Source: Escherichia phage GertrudWoker_Bas73. From it: 43,856 bases of DNA. Below, in pieces: positions 10,896 through 17,504 of this stretch. Made by a program: the position numbers and the translations under genes. The first letter of the stretch is position 1. Each line of letters begins with the position of its first letter. The stretch lies in the sequence record PQ850603.1; one strand, written 5' to 3'. The notes below the pieces were generated by a model that made no database searches, had not been told where the DNA came from, and saw only the letters and a program-made list of their open reading frames with translations.

Positions 10896-11308
10896 TGGGC
10901 TACTTTGAGGACTTAACAAAAGCGTTCGATGTTCCGCTGGTAGCCTTCGGAACCGCCAACGGCATCAAGGTTGCGCTTGAAAACATCGACGCGCCGACGT
11001 CAACCGATACGCCGTATCTGGCGAGTTACATGCTACTGGCAGATACCGAGCAGGCGGATTTGTTCTTCACTGAGCAACGCTCTGGTATTTATCAGGTAGA
11101 CATTAACTACGCATCGGTGAAAGGTAGCGCGCCAATCAATAAAATGGCAGACTTACTTAACACGGCGTTTAAAGCAGGTAAGTCATTTTCGCGTAACGAC
11201 ATCTGCGCCGAGGTTCAATCGGTTAGCCTGGGGCCGCTGATTGTAGAAAACGGATGGGCCAAACGGCCATTGTCAATTAACTTTATAGCATTCACCAAGA
11301 GGCTGTGA
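10895..11308 (+). CDS. hypothetical tail-associated protein (possible tail terminator)
   Basis: 137 aa; overlapping start/stop with neighbours. Confidence 0.4.
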   Translation: MGYFEDLTKAFDVPLVAFGTANGIKVALENIDAPTSTDTPYLASYMLLADTEQADLFFTEQRSGIYQVDINYASVKGSAPINKMADLLNTAFKAGKSFSRNDICAEVQSVSLGPLIVENGWAKRPLSINFIAFTKRL

Positions 11309-12477
11309 ATATGGCTACAACTCCTTTTAAGGGCGCGAATACCGCGCAATTCTATGTGGCGGAAGTGACCCCGGGTGTAACACCGACTAACCCGGTCTGG
11401 TCACCATTACGTAACACGGGCGGTGTTCCTGCCATTACCCGTGACACACTGACCTCCAACGAACTCGACGGCAGCCGTGAAACTACATCCATCCGCACCG
11501 GTAACAAACAGGTTAGCGGTGAATACGCAATTGAGCTTAGCTCTAAAAGCCAGGATGACTGGTTGGCAGGTGCTTTAGGCTCTACGTGGCAATCCGGTGT
11601 TTCTCTGCCAGGACTATCGATCACCGTCGCGCCCGCGGGCAAGACGTTCACACGCGCTACCGGCAGTTTTATCACTGACGGAGTTGGGGTAGGCGACCTG
11701 ATTGCGTTTACCGACTTAACAGGCGATAACGCAAAACCATTTATTGTTACCGCAGTAACGGCTACCGTTGTTACTGGTGCAGGCATCCAACACACCCTGA
11801 CCACCGAGACAAAAACTAGTAAGGCTAAAACTGGCGACACGCTGGAAACCGGTAACACATGTAAGACGTTCTCTATTCTCACCTGGTACAAAGGACAGTG
11901 CGGCGGGACTGACGCATACACACTAACCAAAGGTGTGGAAGTTTCCGGTTTCACCGTTGAGCAGGCCGTTAACGCGATGGTTACAGGTAGCTTCCCGTTC
12001 ATCGGGCGCAGCCAGGAGATTCTTACTACGCCGCCGTCTGGTTCCAACTTCTCCTCTGTCACGTTTGGTGATGAGCCATTCTCCTCGGTTGACGTTTCTG
12101 TGTTTGACGGCTATACGCCGTTGCGTTGCGACAGCCTGACCATCACCAACGACAACAGCGCATCCGCGCAGTTCGAACTCGGCAACACTAACGTAGCGTT
12201 TGTAGAACGTAGCCGCGCGGCTAACACCTTCTCCATCTCCGGCAAGCTGTATGACATGGCGATGATTCAGAAGTTTATCAACGAGCAGCAGGTAGAGATT
12301 AACTCTATTCTGGCGGGGGTAAACGGGGCTATGTCTTTCAGTTTGAAACGTGCGGAGCTTACGGCAGTTACCCCAGAGATTGGCGGACCTGAGTCAATCA
12401 CTCAGTCCATTGAAGGCCAGGCTACTGGCAACCAGTACCAGTCGTCTATTGTTATTCAGCGTATCACCTACGCATAA
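11305..12477 (+). CDS. major tail protein (putative)
   Basis: 390 aa Thr/Gly/Ser-rich; last large gene before chaperone/tape measure; followed by strong terminator. Confidence 0.55.
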   Translation: MNMATTPFKGANTAQFYVAEVTPGVTPTNPVWSPLRNTGGVPAITRDTLTSNELDGSRETTSIRTGNKQVSGEYAIELSSKSQDDWLAGALGSTWQSGVSLPGLSITVAPAGKTFTRATGSFITDGVGVGDLIAFTDLTGDNAKPFIVTAVTATVVTGAGIQHTLTTETKTSKAKTGDTLETGNTCKTFSILTWYKGQCGGTDAYTLTKGVEVSGFTVEQAVNAMVTGSFPFIGRSQEILTTPPSGSNFSSVTFGDEPFSSVDVSVFDGYTPLRCDSLTITNDNSASAQFELGNTNVAFVERSRAANTFSISGKLYDMAMIQKFINEQQVEINSILAGVNGAMSFSLKRAELTAVTPEIGGPESITQSIEGQATGNQYQSSIVIQRITYA

Positions 12478-12482
12478 AACTA

Positions 12483-12506
12483 AGGCCCCGAAAGGGGCCT
12501 TTTTTA
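12483..12506. terminator. bidirectional hairpin terminator
   Basis: 'aggcccc gaaa ggggcct' followed by 'tttttt'; between convergent genes. Confidence 0.65.
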
Positions 12507-12737
12507 TTACTCATCAATGTTACTCCTGTACTCCCGTAACTTTTCCAGACTTTCAATTGCTTCCGCTAAGTCGGTTCCGGTGTCCTTGTGTCCACGTAAA
12601 CCCATGCACAATAGCTTCTTCAATGCGTGCTGTAACGCCGGGTCGCGGATGTCGAAAGCGCGGAGCACATCATAAACGTCTACTGTCATAGTGCTGCCGT
12701 GAGTATTTGTCATTGTGCGGTTGTATTTTGAAGTCAT
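12507..12737 (-). CDS. hypothetical protein coupled to the metallophosphoesterase
   Basis: start overlaps stop of 12734..13864 (ATGA on minus strand); no recognisable motif. Confidence 0.5.
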   Translation of the reverse strand: MTSKYNRTMTNTHGSTMTVDVYDVLRAFDIRDPALQHALKKLLCMGLRGHKDTGTDLAEAIESLEKLREYRSNIDE

Positions 12738-13864
12738 CCCAGCATCTCCGGTGAAATAGTTAAACGTGCGACCTCGCCATATTCGGCGCTATAAGTAATT
12801 ACATTTGCACTGCGGCCTGACATCCACCCGCCGCGGGAGGCATAGGCGTCTTTAGCCGCTAAGGTGCGGTGTTGCTCAACAATCATGTTACGGCTTTCTA
12901 CAATCTTCTGGTGGTGCAGGTGGCCTACGTGGGCGTAGCTATAGACACTCTCACCGAACGCTTTGCGGAATTTGGCAATCATAACCGGTTCGATAGCATC
13001 GAATCGCGCCTTATGCCCGTGGTGAAAGAACAACGTCGTTTTTCCGTGTTGCACCATCTTGTAAACATCCGGCGACGTATCGACAATCACTCGGCTGTCG
13101 TTCGAATATAAAACTGTGAACATTTCAGCCAGCCATACAGAGCCTACAGGGTCATGGTTCCCCTGTACGATAAGCAAGCGAACATTTTTATGTTTAACCA
13201 GTGCCATATCTACAACACGGCGTACCATACGAATCATGTAGCGGACGAGTTTCTGGTAGCGAGTGTCTGCGTCCAACACGTGACGCGACTCAGGTGTAAC
13301 GGCATCCAGACTATCGAAGTGCGCGAAATCACCCAGCAGGTTAATAACTCCTGTTCCTGCATCCGGTGCTTTCTGAAACGCCGCGTCGAACCAACGAGAG
13401 AACAGGTCTTCCGCAATCTTTATATCCCAGTCGTCGCCGCTCTCGTCGGCCCAGGCAAGCATACCGAGATGGAAATCAGATACCGTGTAAAGATTGAGTA
13501 GCTTGTCGTCGCGTTTGGCTCGAGTCGCTTTAGCCGGCGCAACTGGCGTAATCTCTGACTTCATGCCTTCAATCACGGCTTTCATCAACTCGACCTGACG
13601 TTCAGCGTCGGTGTCTGTCTTAACCCATTGCAACTTAGTATTGCCGAACTCGTCTACCAGAGACGACGTCCCTTTAATCTTGTAGCCGTCTGGGACAAGG
13701 TGGCTAACGTCACGCCCGTGGCCTACACCTTTCTTAGCCAGCTTCGCTTTACGGATACGAATAACTCGGTCTGAGATGCCGTATTTACGGGCGATGTCTA
13801 CATTCTTCATCCCGGCGTTCAATTCTTCCTGTAACTGTTCGTCGGTTATTTTCTTCTGGGCCAT
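12734..13864 (-). CDS. HTH-fused calcineurin-like metallophosphoesterase (Mre11/SbcD-like)
   Basis: motifs 'SDFHLG', 'GDFAHFD', 'GNHD', 'HHGH', 'GHLHH' in order; N-terminal ~100 aa HTH-like 'VDIARKYGISDRVIRIRKAKL'. Confidence 0.7.
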   Translation of the reverse strand: MAQKKITDEQLQEELNAGMKNVDIARKYGISDRVIRIRKAKLAKKGVGHGRDVSHLVPDGYKIKGTSSLVDEFGNTKLQWVKTDTDAERQVELMKAVIEGMKSEITPVAPAKATRAKRDDKLLNLYTVSDFHLGMLAWADESGDDWDIKIAEDLFSRWFDAAFQKAPDAGTGVINLLGDFAHFDSLDAVTPESRHVLDADTRYQKLVRYMIRMVRRVVDMALVKHKNVRLLIVQGNHDPVGSVWLAEMFTVLYSNDSRVIVDTSPDVYKMVQHGKTTLFFHHGHKARFDAIEPVMIAKFRKAFGESVYSYAHVGHLHHQKIVESRNMIVEQHRTLAAKDAYASRGGWMSGRSANVITYSAEYGEVARLTISPEMLG

Positions 13865-13929
13865 GCTTACTTCCTCGTGTTTAGGATTTGTCCTATTTAA
13901 CCACAGTGGATTCCTTTAAATAAAGGCAA

Positions 13930-14256
13930 CTATTTACTTTCTGCGCCTATCGCCCACCCTGTCATTACCATTTGCAGACGGGTGGCTGTCAGTAGGCTAT
14001 AGAAAGCATCTCCGTTTTTCTCTACCGAACGTATCACTGTGTAGGTTACGGCCTGCGGGGGTAGGCCCGATTTACCAACCTCCACGGCGGCCTCACACTC
14101 GCGAACTGTAGAGTCCTTGAACGCCTTTACAATAGTAGGGTCGGCTTTATCAAGCACACCAGAAGTCATAAGAACAGATTCACTAAATACCTGTTCGCAC
14201 GGGGCCCCAAAAGTAGCAAAAGACATAAACCCCAGAGCTAATACTAATTTACGCAT
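13930..14256 (-). CDS. small secreted/periplasmic protein
   Basis: N-terminal signal peptide 'MRKLVLALGFMSFATFGAP'; two Cys; first gene behind promoter 14285-14313. Confidence 0.5.
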   Translation of the reverse strand: MRKLVLALGFMSFATFGAPCEQVFSESVLMTSGVLDKADPTIVKAFKDSTVRECEAAVEVGKSGLPPQAVTYTVIRSVEKNGDAFYSLLTATRLQMVMTGWAIGAESK

Positions 14257-14284
14257 AATTATACCCTCAGTAAGTTACTGGTGA

Positions 14285-14313
14285 ATAGTACCCTATTATA
14301 TTGGGGCGCGCAA
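14285..14313 (-). promoter_or_regulatory. sigma70-like promoter TTGCGC-N17-TACTAT with AATAGGGTACTATT palindrome
   Basis: near-identical to the promoter at 5161-5189. Confidence 0.5.
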
Positions 14314-14420
14314 GTAGTGTGTTAGAATAAGTTTGCGCCTAGTGTCGCACACGAAAAGCGGGTGGTTCCCGCCTGGCGCATTAACCATAACCAGTAACCT
14401 CTTAACCAAAGGACTAAAGA

Positions 14421-14837
14421 ATGAAACTTTCTGATTTCTATTTTGCCGACCGCCACGCCGCCGGTACTAAAATGCCTATCCTTCTGCCCAGTGGTAAAGA
14501 TTCCGGTGAATGGTTGCAGGTCATCGGCCCCGATTGTGACGCTGGTGTTCGTGCGGGCCGTGCCTACACAACGGCAATTCGACGCCTTACGGAAGAACTT
14601 GCGCCATTAGATAAAGAGTGCGAGGCGCTGAATAACTGGGCGCGCTATAATGATGAGAAGGGCTGGCGGGTGATGGACCTGAACAAGCAGCTTGCCGTGG
14701 AAATCGTCACCGGTTGGTCATTCGACGAACCATTCAGCAAAGAGGCGCTTGCTAACCTGTTCGACCAGTACAGTGGGTTGGCAGAGGCCGTAGTTAAGCA
14801 TCACACCGATAGCCGTGAGAAACTCTCGGAAAAGTAA
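14421..14837 (+). CDS. tail assembly chaperone (gpG-like)
   Basis: 138 aa directly upstream of tape measure gene; downstream -1 frame stays open to 15199. Confidence 0.5.
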   Translation: MKLSDFYFADRHAAGTKMPILLPSGKDSGEWLQVIGPDCDAGVRAGRAYTTAIRRLTEELAPLDKECEALNNWARYNDEKGWRVMDLNKQLAVEIVTGWSFDEPFSKEALANLFDQYSGLAEAVVKHHTDSREKLSEK

Positions 14838-15199
14838 AAGCGCTGTATGAATTTGCGCAATGGTGCTTTGTCGACCGCCACAAACGTAAGCAATTCGACG
14901 ACATCGCGGCGGGCCACCAGGCGGCTTTGATTGCAATGGGCGTGATTAAAGAACCGCAGATGAAAGAAGCGACGGGGCCGGAATGCCCCGTTTCTCTTAT
15001 CGACGTGTTCGAGAAATACCGTGCCATTAAATTCCTACAGCGCGAAACAGATGATACTATCGTTATAATCCCGCGCGATGCGCTCAAATGGCAAGATTTG
15101 GTAGCGTTTCGTGATGTCGCCGGTTACGGCATAAGTTTGTTCGAAGCCGAGGTTATCATGGGCTTAGACGGAATATTTGAGGGCAGAGAAGATGGCTGA
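14828..15199 (+). CDS. putative -1 frameshift extension of tail assembly chaperone (gpGT-like)
   Basis: candidate slippery heptamer 'GGAAAAG' at 14828-14834 just before stop at 14835; -1 frame open from 14822 to 15199. Confidence 0.4.
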   Translation, partial: GKVKALYEFAQWCFVDRHKRKQFDDIAAGHQAALIAMGVIKEPQMKEATGPECPVSLIDVFEKYRAIKFLQRETDDTIVIIPRDALKWQDLVAFRDVAGYGISLFEAEVIMGLDGIFEGREDG

Positions 15200-17504
15200 T
15201 ACGGCTTCCCTAATTGCCAGAGTAAAAACAGAAGGCGCTGATGTAGCCGCTAAACAGCTTGACGCTATGGCGGCATCCGCAGACCGTGCGGACACATCCG
15301 TAAACAAACTAACGCCGGATGTTAATAAAGTAAACTCCGCTACGTCTAAAGCGGCTTCTGACGGTTTCGCTAAATTCCGTAACGCCGCCGGGCAGGTAGG
15401 CTTCCAGGTGCAGGACATGGTCGTCCAGTTGCAGTCCGGCACGTCTGCATTCGTAGCAATCGGGCAACAAGGCTCTCAGCTTGCGGGTGCTTTCGGCCCT
15501 GGTGGCGCGGTGCTTGGGGCCGTAATTGCTCTTGCGTCAGCAATCGGCGGTGTCCTGTATAAATCGTTAACCGAAGCAGAAGGCAGTTCAAAAGACCTCG
15601 AAGCCGCACAGAAACAGCTAAAAGATACTTTCCAGCAAACGGCGTCCGGCTCTCTCGAACTGACAGACGGCCTTATCCAGCTTACCCAAATCAGCAGAGA
15701 AGCGGCGGAGACTCAGCTTGCGCTGGCTAAGGCTAACGCGGACCTTATCGCACAGCAAACAGCTAAAGCTGTTCGTGAGGACGCAGAATCATGGGAGACA
15801 TGGAAGGCATCCACAGCATCAGCTATCAGCCAGTACGATGCACTGACCTCTAAGGGTGCTGATGTAGGTGACACGTTAGAAAAACTCGGTGGTACTTACG
15901 AGGGTAACATCGTAGGCGTCAACATGCTGGCGCAGAATATCGCGGAGCTTAGCAGTAAGTTCGGAGTTAACCGTGACCAGGCGCTGGAGATGATAGCGGC
16001 GCAGAGTGCGTTTAACAAAGAGCCAACCGCCGAGAATGCCCGTCGCATCGCCGATGTGTTTACCGACTGGCTCGGTAACACAAAACAGTTGAACCCGGAA
16101 CTTATCCGCCTGACGGACAACGCCAACAAGAACGCCACGGCACTGGAGAACGCGGAGAAGTCAGCAAACGCGGCGGCAGAGGCCCAAAAGAATCTTGGTC
16201 GCAACGTCAACTCAACCACGCAGAGATTCCAGGAACAGAACGAAGCTATCGTCAAAAACCAGCAAATCGCCATCTTAAGCGACCGTGAGCGTATCCGGGC
16301 GCAAGCTGAACTTGATAAACAGGCGTTCGCTAAACGTGAAGCCGTCACCAAAGAACAGATAGCCGCGTATAATGCGGCCCGCGACGCGGAAGCGCAGCAA
16401 GACATCGCCCGCATTGACAAGACCGAGAAAGAGAAGGCCGACCGCGAGGCTAAATCGAACGAGGAACGTCTGGCGGCACAAGCCAAACGCGAAGAAACAG
16501 CGGCACAACGTCAGAAAAAAGCGGCGGAAGATTTCCTGGCTACTGTCGACCGCACAACCGGAGACGAAATTTCACGTATCACAGCGGCAGAAGAACAGAA
16601 ACTGGCGAAACTTGAAGAGTTCAACCGCGCCGGAACGATAAGCCAGCAGCAGTACGAAAACGCCAAAACTCAAATTATGCTCACCGCCGAGCAGGCCAGA
16701 CAGGAAGAACTGGATAAGAAAAGAAAAGAGCAGCAGGAAAAGCAGCAGAAAGGCGACGACTTCATGGCCCAGATTATGGGTCAGAACGCCGCTGAGCTTG
16801 AGCTTCTCGACATCCAGGAACAGCAGAAACTGTCGGTAGCAGATAAGTACCGCGAGCAGGGTTTGATTAGTGAGAAGCAGTATCAGGCTGCGCTTAATGC
16901 CATCAACGAGCAGTACGCCACGAAGCGTGCCGACGCAACGGCAACGGCCTTCGGTAACATGGCTTCAAACATCGGTTCGGCTTTGGGCGAGGCTTCTGGC
17001 GCGTATAAGGCATTCGCTATCGTACAGGCCACTATCGCCACGTACACCGCGGCTATCGAGGCGTACAAGTCCACAGCGGCTATCCCTGTAGTTGGTCCGT
17101 TCCTGGCTCCTGTAGCTGCCGCCGCTGCCGTTGGGGCGGGTATGGCGCAGATTTCCGCTATCAGGTCCGCACGTGAACAGGGCGGACAGTTATCAGCCGG
17201 GCAGGCTTCCACCATCGCTGAACGTGGTAAACCAGAAGTTATCATGCCCGCTGGTGCGTCACGTGTACGCACCGCACAGCAGATGAAAGAAATTATGGGG
17301 CAAAACGGGTCTTCTTCCGGCCCATCTAATGTTACCATTGTAAATAATACATCGAGTCAGATTGGCAACGTATCCACCGAGCAGGATGATGAAGGCCGTC
17401 TGCGTATCATCATAGAAGAGCAAGTTGCTGCATCTTTGCAGAACAGCAACAGTAAGATTAGCAAGGCCCGCAAGGCCACAAGAAACGCGCCGGGGTTTAA
17501 ATAA
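15177..17504 (+). CDS. tail tape measure protein
   Basis: 775 aa, long Ala/Gln/Glu/Lys-rich coiled-coil regions plus hydrophobic Gly/Ala-rich segment; canonical position. Confidence 0.85.
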   Translation: MRAEKMADTASLIARVKTEGADVAAKQLDAMAASADRADTSVNKLTPDVNKVNSATSKAASDGFAKFRNAAGQVGFQVQDMVVQLQSGTSAFVAIGQQGSQLAGAFGPGGAVLGAVIALASAIGGVLYKSLTEAEGSSKDLEAAQKQLKDTFQQTASGSLELTDGLIQLTQISREAAETQLALAKANADLIAQQTAKAVREDAESWETWKASTASAISQYDALTSKGADVGDTLEKLGGTYEGNIVGVNMLAQNIAELSSKFGVNRDQALEMIAAQSAFNKEPTAENARRIADVFTDWLGNTKQLNPELIRLTDNANKNATALENAEKSANAAAEAQKNLGRNVNSTTQRFQEQNEAIVKNQQIAILSDRERIRAQAELDKQAFAKREAVTKEQIAAYNAARDAEAQQDIARIDKTEKEKADREAKSNEERLAAQAKREETAAQRQKKAAEDFLATVDRTTGDEISRITAAEEQKLAKLEEFNRAGTISQQQYENAKTQIMLTAEQARQEELDKKRKEQQEKQQKGDDFMAQIMGQNAAELELLDIQEQQKLSVADKYREQGLISEKQYQAALNAINEQYATKRADATATAFGNMASNIGSALGEASGAYKAFAIVQATIATYTAAIEAYKSTAAIPVVGPFLAPVAAAAAVGAGMAQISAIRSAREQGGQLSAGQASTIAERGKPEVIMPAGASRVRTAQQMKEIMGQNGSSSGPSNVTIVNNTSSQIGNVSTEQDDEGRLRIIIEEQVAASLQNSNSKISKARKATRNAPGFK

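Follow-up and report, generated by a model that had tools for sequence, protein, structure and literature searches.

A probable −1 frameshift on A_AAG beside the stop codon that ends the tail assembly chaperone gene in Escherichia phage GertrudWoker_Bas73 and its relatives

Just upstream of the tape measure protein gene of Escherichia phage GertrudWoker_Bas73 (PQ850603.1), a short open reading frame for a tail assembly chaperone is followed, in the −1 frame, by a second one, and the question that this locus raises is whether the second frame is read by ribosomes that slip at the end of the first, is a gene with its own start codon, or yields no product at all. The making of a short chaperone (G) and of a longer, frameshifted version of it (GT) is a textbook trait of long-tailed phages, and the answer brings little new biology because the arrangement is an ordinary one for a phage. 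Its practical value lies in annotation, since the records of this phage group are inconsistent on G and T. Two points are of modest further interest, namely the minimal slip signal, which abuts the stop codon, and a conserved hairpin in the T frame. From the comparison of sequences described below, we consider it highly probable that a programmed −1 frameshift makes both G (138 aa) and GT (259 aa). A −1 frameshift in the chaperone had been proposed in an earlier, sequence-only reading of this DNA, and the proposal is supported by the protein families of the two frames, by a switch of coding frame among relatives and by a fusion protein deposited for phage K1H.

The window is the whole stretch of DNA that was analysed, 43,856 nt in length, and all coordinates refer to it. 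The genes concerned, and the stop codon that bounds the −1 frame on its 5' side, are the following.

11305–12477, plus strand: tail tube (major tail) protein gene (Pfam PF18906, Phage_tube_2, E = 7.5e-36).
14421–14837, plus strand: G, the short tail assembly chaperone gene, giving 138 aa and 15.6 kDa by standard decoding and ending with the stop codon TAA at 14835–14837.
14816–14818, plus strand: TGA in the −1 frame, the nearest −1 frame stop 5' of the slip region.
14834–15199, plus strand: T extension, 121 codons in the −1 frame, from GTA at 14834–14836 to the stop codon TGA at 15197–15199.
15192–17504, plus strand: tape measure protein gene (phrog_1538, E = 1e-198).

The overlapping pair of G and T comes after the tube gene and lies directly 5' of the tape measure gene; unlike in phage lambda, a block of reverse-strand genes (12507–14256) separates the tube gene (11305–12477) from G. 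Reading of the sequence, checked by script, gives the zero-frame 3' end of G as CTC TCG GAA AAG TAA, with the stop codon at the place assigned to it in the sequence-only reading. The −1 frame is open from 14819 to 15199 (126 codons, ending with the TGA at 15197–15199). The earlier reading had the end of this open frame right and its start, given as 14822, 3 nt too far downstream, the preceding TGA being at 14816–14818; because of this TGA, a shift into T is confined in GertrudWoker_Bas73 to 14819–14834. At its 3' end the −1 frame overlaps the start of the tape measure gene, a feature also noted earlier: the ATG at 15192 and the stop codon of T share 8 nt, ATGGCTGA. The earliest ATG, GTG or TTG in the −1 frame is the TTG at 14927, 90 nt past the G stop, and the next ATG is at 14936. 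From the window's own frequency of stop triplets, a stop-free run of 121 codons would arise by chance with a probability of about 0.006. The predicted fusion GT joins 14421–14834 to 14834–15199, in the notation of a joined CDS join(14421..14834,14834..15199), and has 259 aa and a mass of 29.3 kDa.

Both frames have matches in Pfam. Residues 78–130 of G match PF08748 (Phage_TAC_4) with 35.9 bits, above the curated gathering threshold of 21.1 bits, and residues 37–121 of the −1 frame translation match PF23812 (Phage_TAC_18) over positions 1–78 of its 79 with 64.6 bits, above a curated gathering threshold of 27 bits. In addition, a single 259-position PHROG profile, phrog_15027, spans both halves, with G mapping to positions 1–138 and residues 5–126 of the −1 frame translation to positions 138–259. 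Since G and T map contiguously on it, this profile must have been built from fused proteins with the junction at Lys138. A search of the 259-aa fusion against the sequences of the PDB gave no significant match.

It should be noted that the frameshifted chaperone of this phage group is already known as a database annotation, although one that is unevenly applied. Between 14300 and 15300 the DNA is 100% identical to that of Escherichia phage NicoleGrasset_Bas72 (PQ850621.1) and 94–99.7% identical to that of many other Kagunavirus phages (subfamily Guernseyvirinae), K1H included, and the product of G is named tail assembly chaperone in PQ850621.1 and NC_027994.1. Phage K1H, of the same genus, carries the same gene pair as ORF19A/19B (GU196278 / NC_027994; ADA82315.1, ADA82316.1), and its deposited protein ADA82316.1 / YP_009168853.1, 'tail assembly chaperone [Escherichia phage K1H]', is letter for letter the predicted 259-aa fusion (100% identity over 259 aa), with the same junction ...LSEK-VKALY.... 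A two-piece joined CDS of 779 nt is present at this locus in the RefSeq record of K1H (NC_027994) and in the record of fFiEco02 (MT711523), a phage of the same genus with the same gene pair (FE2_025/026), where the joined CDS is labelled 'putative tail assembly chaperone frameshift product'. The fFiEco02 entry is annotation only, as is that of K1H, and no experimental support was found for either fusion entry. The searchable literature on Kagunavirus and Guernseyvirinae yielded no experimental detection of GT; only the genome announcement of phage Shashou turned up, which reports no canonical slippery sequence at this place (PMC6776780).

Two overlapping elements at the end of G have to be distinguished as candidates for the slip site.

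14828–14834, plus strand: heptamer GGAAAAG, phased G_GAA_AAG, its first three bases not conserved as a slippery P-site triplet.
14831–14834, plus strand: A_AAG, the proposed slip site, invariant in 44 non-redundant loci and in the named phages.

The sequence-only reading had pointed to GGAAAAG, lying over the last two sense codons of G, and had remarked that it is not a canonical XXXYYYZ. Position and remark are both correct, as the heptamer is phased G_GAA_AAG, its first G being the last base of TCG, and does not fit X_XXY_YYZ. Its role as the slip site held up only for the last four bases, A_AAG, which are conserved, whereas the preceding codon is variable. With A at 14831 and AAG at 14832–14834 in the frame of G, A_AAG is the only Z_ZZN tetramer in 14819–14834, and reading of these positions revealed no other Z_ZZN and no X_XXY_YYZ motif.

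Relatives were collected by an IMG/VR scan with the G protein, which gave 50 loci, 44 of them non-redundant and with the same module (G 44–100% identical to the query), and K1H, fFiEco02, Shashou, FSL SP-031 (Cornellvirus), SETP13 (Jerseyvirus) and Serratia phage Eta were added as named phages. Roughly 400 phage records contain this module. In all 44 loci and all six named phages, G ends with NNA_AAG followed by TAA or TAG; this covers about 15 diverged Guernseyvirinae-like lineages, a count that overstates their independence because the lineages share ancestry. The −1 frame is open past the G stop for 120–122 codons in every relative examined, and the overlap with the start of the tape measure gene is kept across lineages. 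The distance from the G stop back to the preceding −1 frame stop ranges from 16 to 205 nt, and in several lineages, GertrudWoker_Bas73 included, it is so short that only the last five codons of G are left for the shift.

The conservation of the motif is found at the level of nucleotides. Among 13 representatives with a G of 138 codons, the third base is invariant only in Met1, Met18, Trp31, Trp99 and codons 137 and 138, so that the last two are the only degenerate codons in which it is fixed. Codon 137, moreover, has the sole fixed third base among the 81 columns with at least three different amino acids, as it encodes A, E, G or V and is always NNA. Lys138 is AAG in 13 of the 13 representatives; Lys codons overall are divided into 121 AAA and 86 AAG (41% AAG), and the other conserved Lys column in G makes use of both. 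Such fixed bases in codons 137 and 138 would be expected if A_AAG is required, and would not be if T is a separate gene. In-frame A_AAG tetramers number 43 in the 66 putative genes of the window, and the one at the slip site alone directly precedes a stop codon.

The same data bear on the closest competitor of a slip on A_AAG, i.e. a tandem slip of two tRNAs on G_GAA_AAG, in which tRNA-Glu would move from GAA to GGA in the P site and tRNA-Lys from AAG to AAA in the A site, with the same protein product. Judging from the sequence, tRNA-Glu on GGA would pair at positions 1 and 3 and form G:U at position 2. Most lineages have G just before the P-site codon, and a single lineage (L042) has the full canonical G_GGA_AAG, which is the site of lambda and is highly shift-prone in E. 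coli (PMC5009743). The ability to re-pair in the P site is, however, not conserved, since the codon preceding AAG varies by lineage (GAA, GTA, GCA, GGA or TCA), as does the base before that codon (G, A or C), whereas A_AAG and the stop codon are invariant. The tandem slip is in our opinion a real but minor possibility, and the comparison of lineages indicates that the operative signal is A_AAG next to the stop codon rather than the full heptamer.

Further evidence comes from the pattern of variation on the two sides of the stop codon. In 41 aligned sequences, the mean column entropy at zero-frame positions 1, 2 and 3 is 0.64, 0.64 and 1.34 in G, and 0.59, 1.30 and 0.60 in 14838–14927, that is, from 14838 on it is the third position of −1 frame codons that varies most. 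As the entropy peak moves at the stop codon, the −1 frame codons are under selection from there on, 5' of any ATG, GTG or TTG. The 30 triplets from the G stop to the TTG at 14927 vary like −1 frame codons and encode conserved ALY, W, FD and GH residues, the conserved motif right after the junction being V-x-A-L-Y-x-[FY]-A-x-W ... FD ... H-[EQK]-A, with a conserved I between FD and H.

A second alternative is that no fusion is made and T stands as a gene of its own, with translation starting independently or by termination-reinitiation at CTG 14843, TTG 14927 or ATG 14936. This is how T appears in most GenBank records, with deposited versions of 118 aa, 90 aa (from TTG 14927) and 87 aa (from ATG 14936). 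The separate CDS of Bas72 occupies 14843–15199 and starts with the CTG at 14843 (PQ850621.1); Serratia phage Eta has a separate T at the homologous position, FSL SP-031 has it as a 64-aa ORF with a start farther downstream, and in Shashou and SETP13 it begins with a TTG at the site homologous to 14843, preceded in Shashou by an annotated ribosome-binding site. In the latter two phages this TTG, a Leu codon, has the sequence AGGA 12 nt to its 5' side. On the other hand, coding constraint in the −1 frame begins at 14838, before TTG 14927 and ATG 14936, and the Met encoded at 14936 is replaced by Ile in several lineages; therefore neither of these two codons can start the functional T region. A separate gene from TTG 14927, which the sequence-only reading had set against its own proposal, is contradicted for this reason, as conserved residues are encoded already 5' of 14927. 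As for the site at 14843, it is CTG in nearly all lineages, and CTG initiates very poorly in E. coli; anti-SD pairing 5' of CTG 14843 lies within the background (percentiles 0.13–0.82). Because a separate gene would also leave the fixed synonymous bases of A_AAG unexplained, we regard it as improbable. In our judgement, the invariant NNA_AAG_TAR, together with a switch of coding frame exactly at the stop codon, settles the annotation in favour of one joined CDS.

The two remaining alternatives were both rejected. In the first, RNA polymerase would slip at the A-run 14830–14833 and add or drop an A, yielding a subset of mRNA with G and T in frame; there is indeed an AAAA run at the site, and such slippage occurs in some phage and IS genes (PMC5009743). 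This is nevertheless very improbable, considering that the run counts no more than 4 A here, and 3 A in lineages with GTAAAG, GCAAAG or TCAAAG, that a base would have to be added to reach the −1 frame, and that neither the adjacent stop codon nor the conserved G that follows the run would have a role. The homopolymer runs that cause productive polymerase slippage are far longer than 3–4 A. Finally, that the −1 frame is open by chance or as a vestige, without a product, is hardly conceivable and is effectively refuted by the Pfam match of 64.6 bits and by the −1 frame coding constraint, with codon-like variation and conserved residues at 44–67% identity of G and with both its length and its overlap with the tape measure gene kept, even if the probability of a 121-codon run is not vanishing across a whole genome.

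For the preferred reading, a programmed −1 frameshift, the following course of events may be proposed. Most ribosomes would translate 14421–14834 and terminate at the TAA, producing the 138-aa G. A minority would slip by −1 on A_AAG at 14831–14834, where tRNA-Lys would leave AAG (14832–14834) and re-pair with AAA (14831–14833); these ribosomes would then read GTA (Val, 14834–14836) and continue in the −1 frame to the TGA at 15197–15199, producing GT with the junction ...LSEK-VKALYEF.... A single tRNA would slip, as at Z_ZZN or NNA_AAG sites, and not two in tandem, as at X_XXY_YYZ. The adjacent stop codon probably helps, in that tRNA-Lys would be held in the P site next to a slowly decoded stop in the A site, and RNA structure apparently plays no part.

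14835–14837, plus strand: TAA, the stop codon of G, immediately following the slip codon and a candidate stimulator of the 'shifty stop' kind.

The stop codon adjoins A_AAG in every lineage, and of 15 representatives 11 have TAG and 4 have TAA. TGA never occurs, although with it the T frame would still encode Val (GTG). For comparison, the genes in the window end with TAA in 37 cases, TGA in 24 and TAG in 5. The invariant stop would fit a pause at a slowly decoded, RF1-read stop codon with tRNA-Lys in the P site, even though such a fit is not proof, and the bias towards TAG and TAA is only suggestive because the G of TAG also opens the next T codon and because the lineages are related.

Other stimulators were sought on both sides of the slip site. 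On the 3' side, RNAalifold on 13 lineages found a trivial 3-pair stem of −0.1 kcal/mol with no covariation, the 100 nt that follow the slip site in GertrudWoker_Bas73 fold no better than shuffled sequences (z = +0.98), and folds computed lineage by lineage over 45 and 70 nt disagree with one another, most z values falling between −1 and +1. A stem that begins 2 nt past the stop codon, AAAGCGCUGU/GGUGCUUU, is not conserved, and was rejected as a conserved element. On the 5' side, anti-SD duplex energies lie within the background of the G gene, and an SD-like stimulator was likewise rejected. In E. coli, A_AAG is the most shift-prone of the Z_ZZN tetramers (A_AAG >> U_UUC > ...); in reporters, tetramers without a stimulator gave 0.147% frameshifting against a background of 0.112%, and 5.6% with a pseudoknot (PMC4066793). 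Reporter A_AAG thus needs a 3' pseudoknot for substantial levels, whereas here no such structure is conserved and the stop codon is the only conserved neighbour. Given that no conserved 3' structure and no 5' SD-like element was found, ribosomes might slip only very rarely if they receive no help from the adjacent stop; we would expect the efficiency to be low, with considerable uncertainty.

A comparison with phage lambda gives an indication of what the two proteins might do. In lambda, the G:GT ratio of about 30:1 is crucial; the partner of the G parts is the tape measure protein and that of the T domain the tail tube protein, and virions contain neither chaperone (Levin, Hendrix & Casjens 1993; Xu, Hendrix & Duda 2004, 2013, 2014; as summarised in PMC5009743). 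Like gpG/gpGT of lambda, the present pair consists of overlapping ORFs directly 5' of the tape measure gene, the second in the −1 frame and lacking a good start codon; the shift would likewise take place near the end of G, on an AAG read by tRNA-Lys and with no evident stimulatory RNA structure, and a short and a fusion product are expected in both cases. By analogy, the tape measure protein would be coated by the G parts, and recruitment of the tail tube protein would fall to the T domain. However, lambda has the canonical G_GGA_AAG some codons before the G stop, whereas only A_AAG is conserved here and it abuts the stop; G and T belong here to Phage_TAC_4 and Phage_TAC_18, which are Pfam families other than those of lambda G and T; and the lambda pair is experimentally proven, whereas the present one is predicted from sequence.

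For the slip signal, closer parallels exist outside lambda. Sites of the NNA_AAG type are used by IS1222 (G_CGA_AAG) and are present in Bacillus subtilis cdd (A_CGA_AAG); how efficient they are depends on which tRNA decodes the 5' codon (PMC5009743). With these and with synthetic NNA_AAG sites, the site described here would share the slip of a single tRNA-Lys from AAG to AAA after a non-slippery codon ending in A. The 'shifty stop' type of frameshifting (Weiss et al. 1987; prfB and antizyme +1 sites, as cited in PMC5009743) offers a parallel for the stop codon, which in both cases lies directly 3' of the shift codon, where slow termination could let the P-site tRNA realign. Its classic natural cases are +1 shifts, whereas the shift here would be −1, and a role of the stop is suggested by its invariant adjacency and by the bias towards TAG and TAA. 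A natural, conserved and unassisted A_AAG beside a stop codon could be used to test termination kinetics against −1 slippage in E. coli.

More distant Phage_TAC_4 loci (L049, L051, L052 and L053; G 30–35% identical) have the same layout of two ORFs, the second in the −1 frame, 5' of the tape measure gene, and carry a canonical T_TTT_TTC or A_AAT_TTT 18–48 nt before the G stop. The presence of canonical sites in these relatives suggests that frameshifting is a trait of the family, and that the type of site changed in the Guernseyvirinae-like clade.

Inside T, a structured element is found that may be of interest in its own right.

14971–14992, plus strand: GC-rich, terminator-like hairpin within T, with a T-run (TTTTTAT) behind it in most relatives.

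Located 137 nt 3' of the slip site, this hairpin is not a classical frameshift stimulator. It is present in most lineages with an 8-pair consensus, of which 4 pairs are changed on both sides, the compensatory changes being in the outer pairs; paired cells amount to 86%, against 75% in shuffles and 36–65% in slid controls. Part of this conservation may be protein-driven, as the inner pairs coincide with a conserved G-P-E-C-P peptide motif.

A broader, speculative scheme, which we think rather doubtful, would combine the two elements. The Guernseyvirinae-type minimal signal, A_AAG flush with an RF1 stop codon (UAA or UAG, never UGA), would act as a −1 'shifty stop' without RNA structure and set the ratio of G to GT, and the T-frame hairpin with its U-run (14971–14992) would serve as a partial terminator, lying where most ribosomes do not translate. 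If this were true, transcription of the tape measure gene would be tuned by, or at least coupled to, frameshifting into T.

A last conserved element lies close to the stop codon.

14840–14846, plus strand: GCGCTGT block, 3–9 nt past the stop codon, with zero entropy in 44 loci.

This block covers two synonymous positions of the T frame (GCG and CTG), T codons 3 and 4 having an invariant third base. Consensus and per-lineage folds revealed no conserved pairing partner for it. In Shashou and SETP13 the block is broken and reads GCGTTG.

The chaperone genes of four more distant Phage_TAC_4 relatives (loci L049, L051, L052 and L053 of IMG/VR) bear canonical slippery heptamers at about 1833-1860 of each locus, T_TTT_TTC in three of them and A_AAT_TTT in the fourth. 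These heptamers lie 18-48 nt upstream of the stop codon of the short chaperone gene G, at a homologous R-x-F-F position, which argues that members of the family kept the frameshift but switched the type of slip site.

The following features surround the proposed A_AAG slip site (14831-14834) of the phage studied here.

12482-12501, bidirectional terminator-like hairpin flanking the reverse-strand block
12507-14256, - strand, gene block with the tail tube gene (11305-12477) on one side and gene G (14421) on the other
14257-14420, gap of 164 nt separating a divergent 108-aa ORF from gene G
14840-14846, + strand, GCGCTGT, 3-9 nt 3' of the G stop
14971-14992, + strand, GC-rich terminator-like hairpin with a tail to about 15002, inside the reading frame of the -1 extension T (GACGGGGCC GGAATG CCCCGTT)

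The GCGCTGT block did not vary in 44 non-redundant loci, even at the last base of GCG and of CTG, both codons of the T frame; Shashou and SETP13 have GCGTTG in its place. A conserved pairing partner for the block was looked for and not found, and codon preference, the sequence context 3' of the slip site or another cause may account for its invariance.

Further downstream, most related lineages have a hairpin followed by TTTTTAT at the position equivalent to 14971-14992, and its outer stem pairs show compensatory changes among lineages (AC/GT, GA/TC, AAA/TTT, GC/GC). The inner pairs are overlapped by the conserved peptide G-P-E-C-P, and in locus L015 the equivalent spot is occupied by a T-run and a hairpin of different sequence. 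Partial termination or attenuation between G and the tape measure gene is a possible role for the hairpin, which lies where the majority of ribosomes would not be translating.

The transcript encompassing G, the fusion GT and the tape measure gene probably starts within the 164-nt gap. A promoter-like site with 10/12 matches is found there on the - strand (14285-14258), a reverse ORF of 30 aa is annotated in the gap in Bas72 and Shashou, and putative divergent promoters are annotated at the equivalent place in Serratia phage Eta. The reverse-strand genes that interrupt the tail module encode a 76-aa ORF, a 376-aa metallophosphoesterase / 'DNA repair exonuclease' and the 108-aa ORF, whose N-terminus is signal-peptide-like (MRKLVLALGFMSFATFGAPC...). 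K1H, fFiEco02 and Shashou share this layout, with a 'superinfection immunity protein' at this position.

In public records, the T ORF is annotated as a separate gene of 64 to 119 aa, starting inconsistently at CTG, TTG or ATG, in PQ850621.1, MK931440.1, KC460990.1, NC_021775.1 and NC_022752.1, all of which would be improved by joining the reading frames in the same way, at the AAG codon. A joined frameshift CDS is annotated in the K1H RefSeq record and in MT711523.
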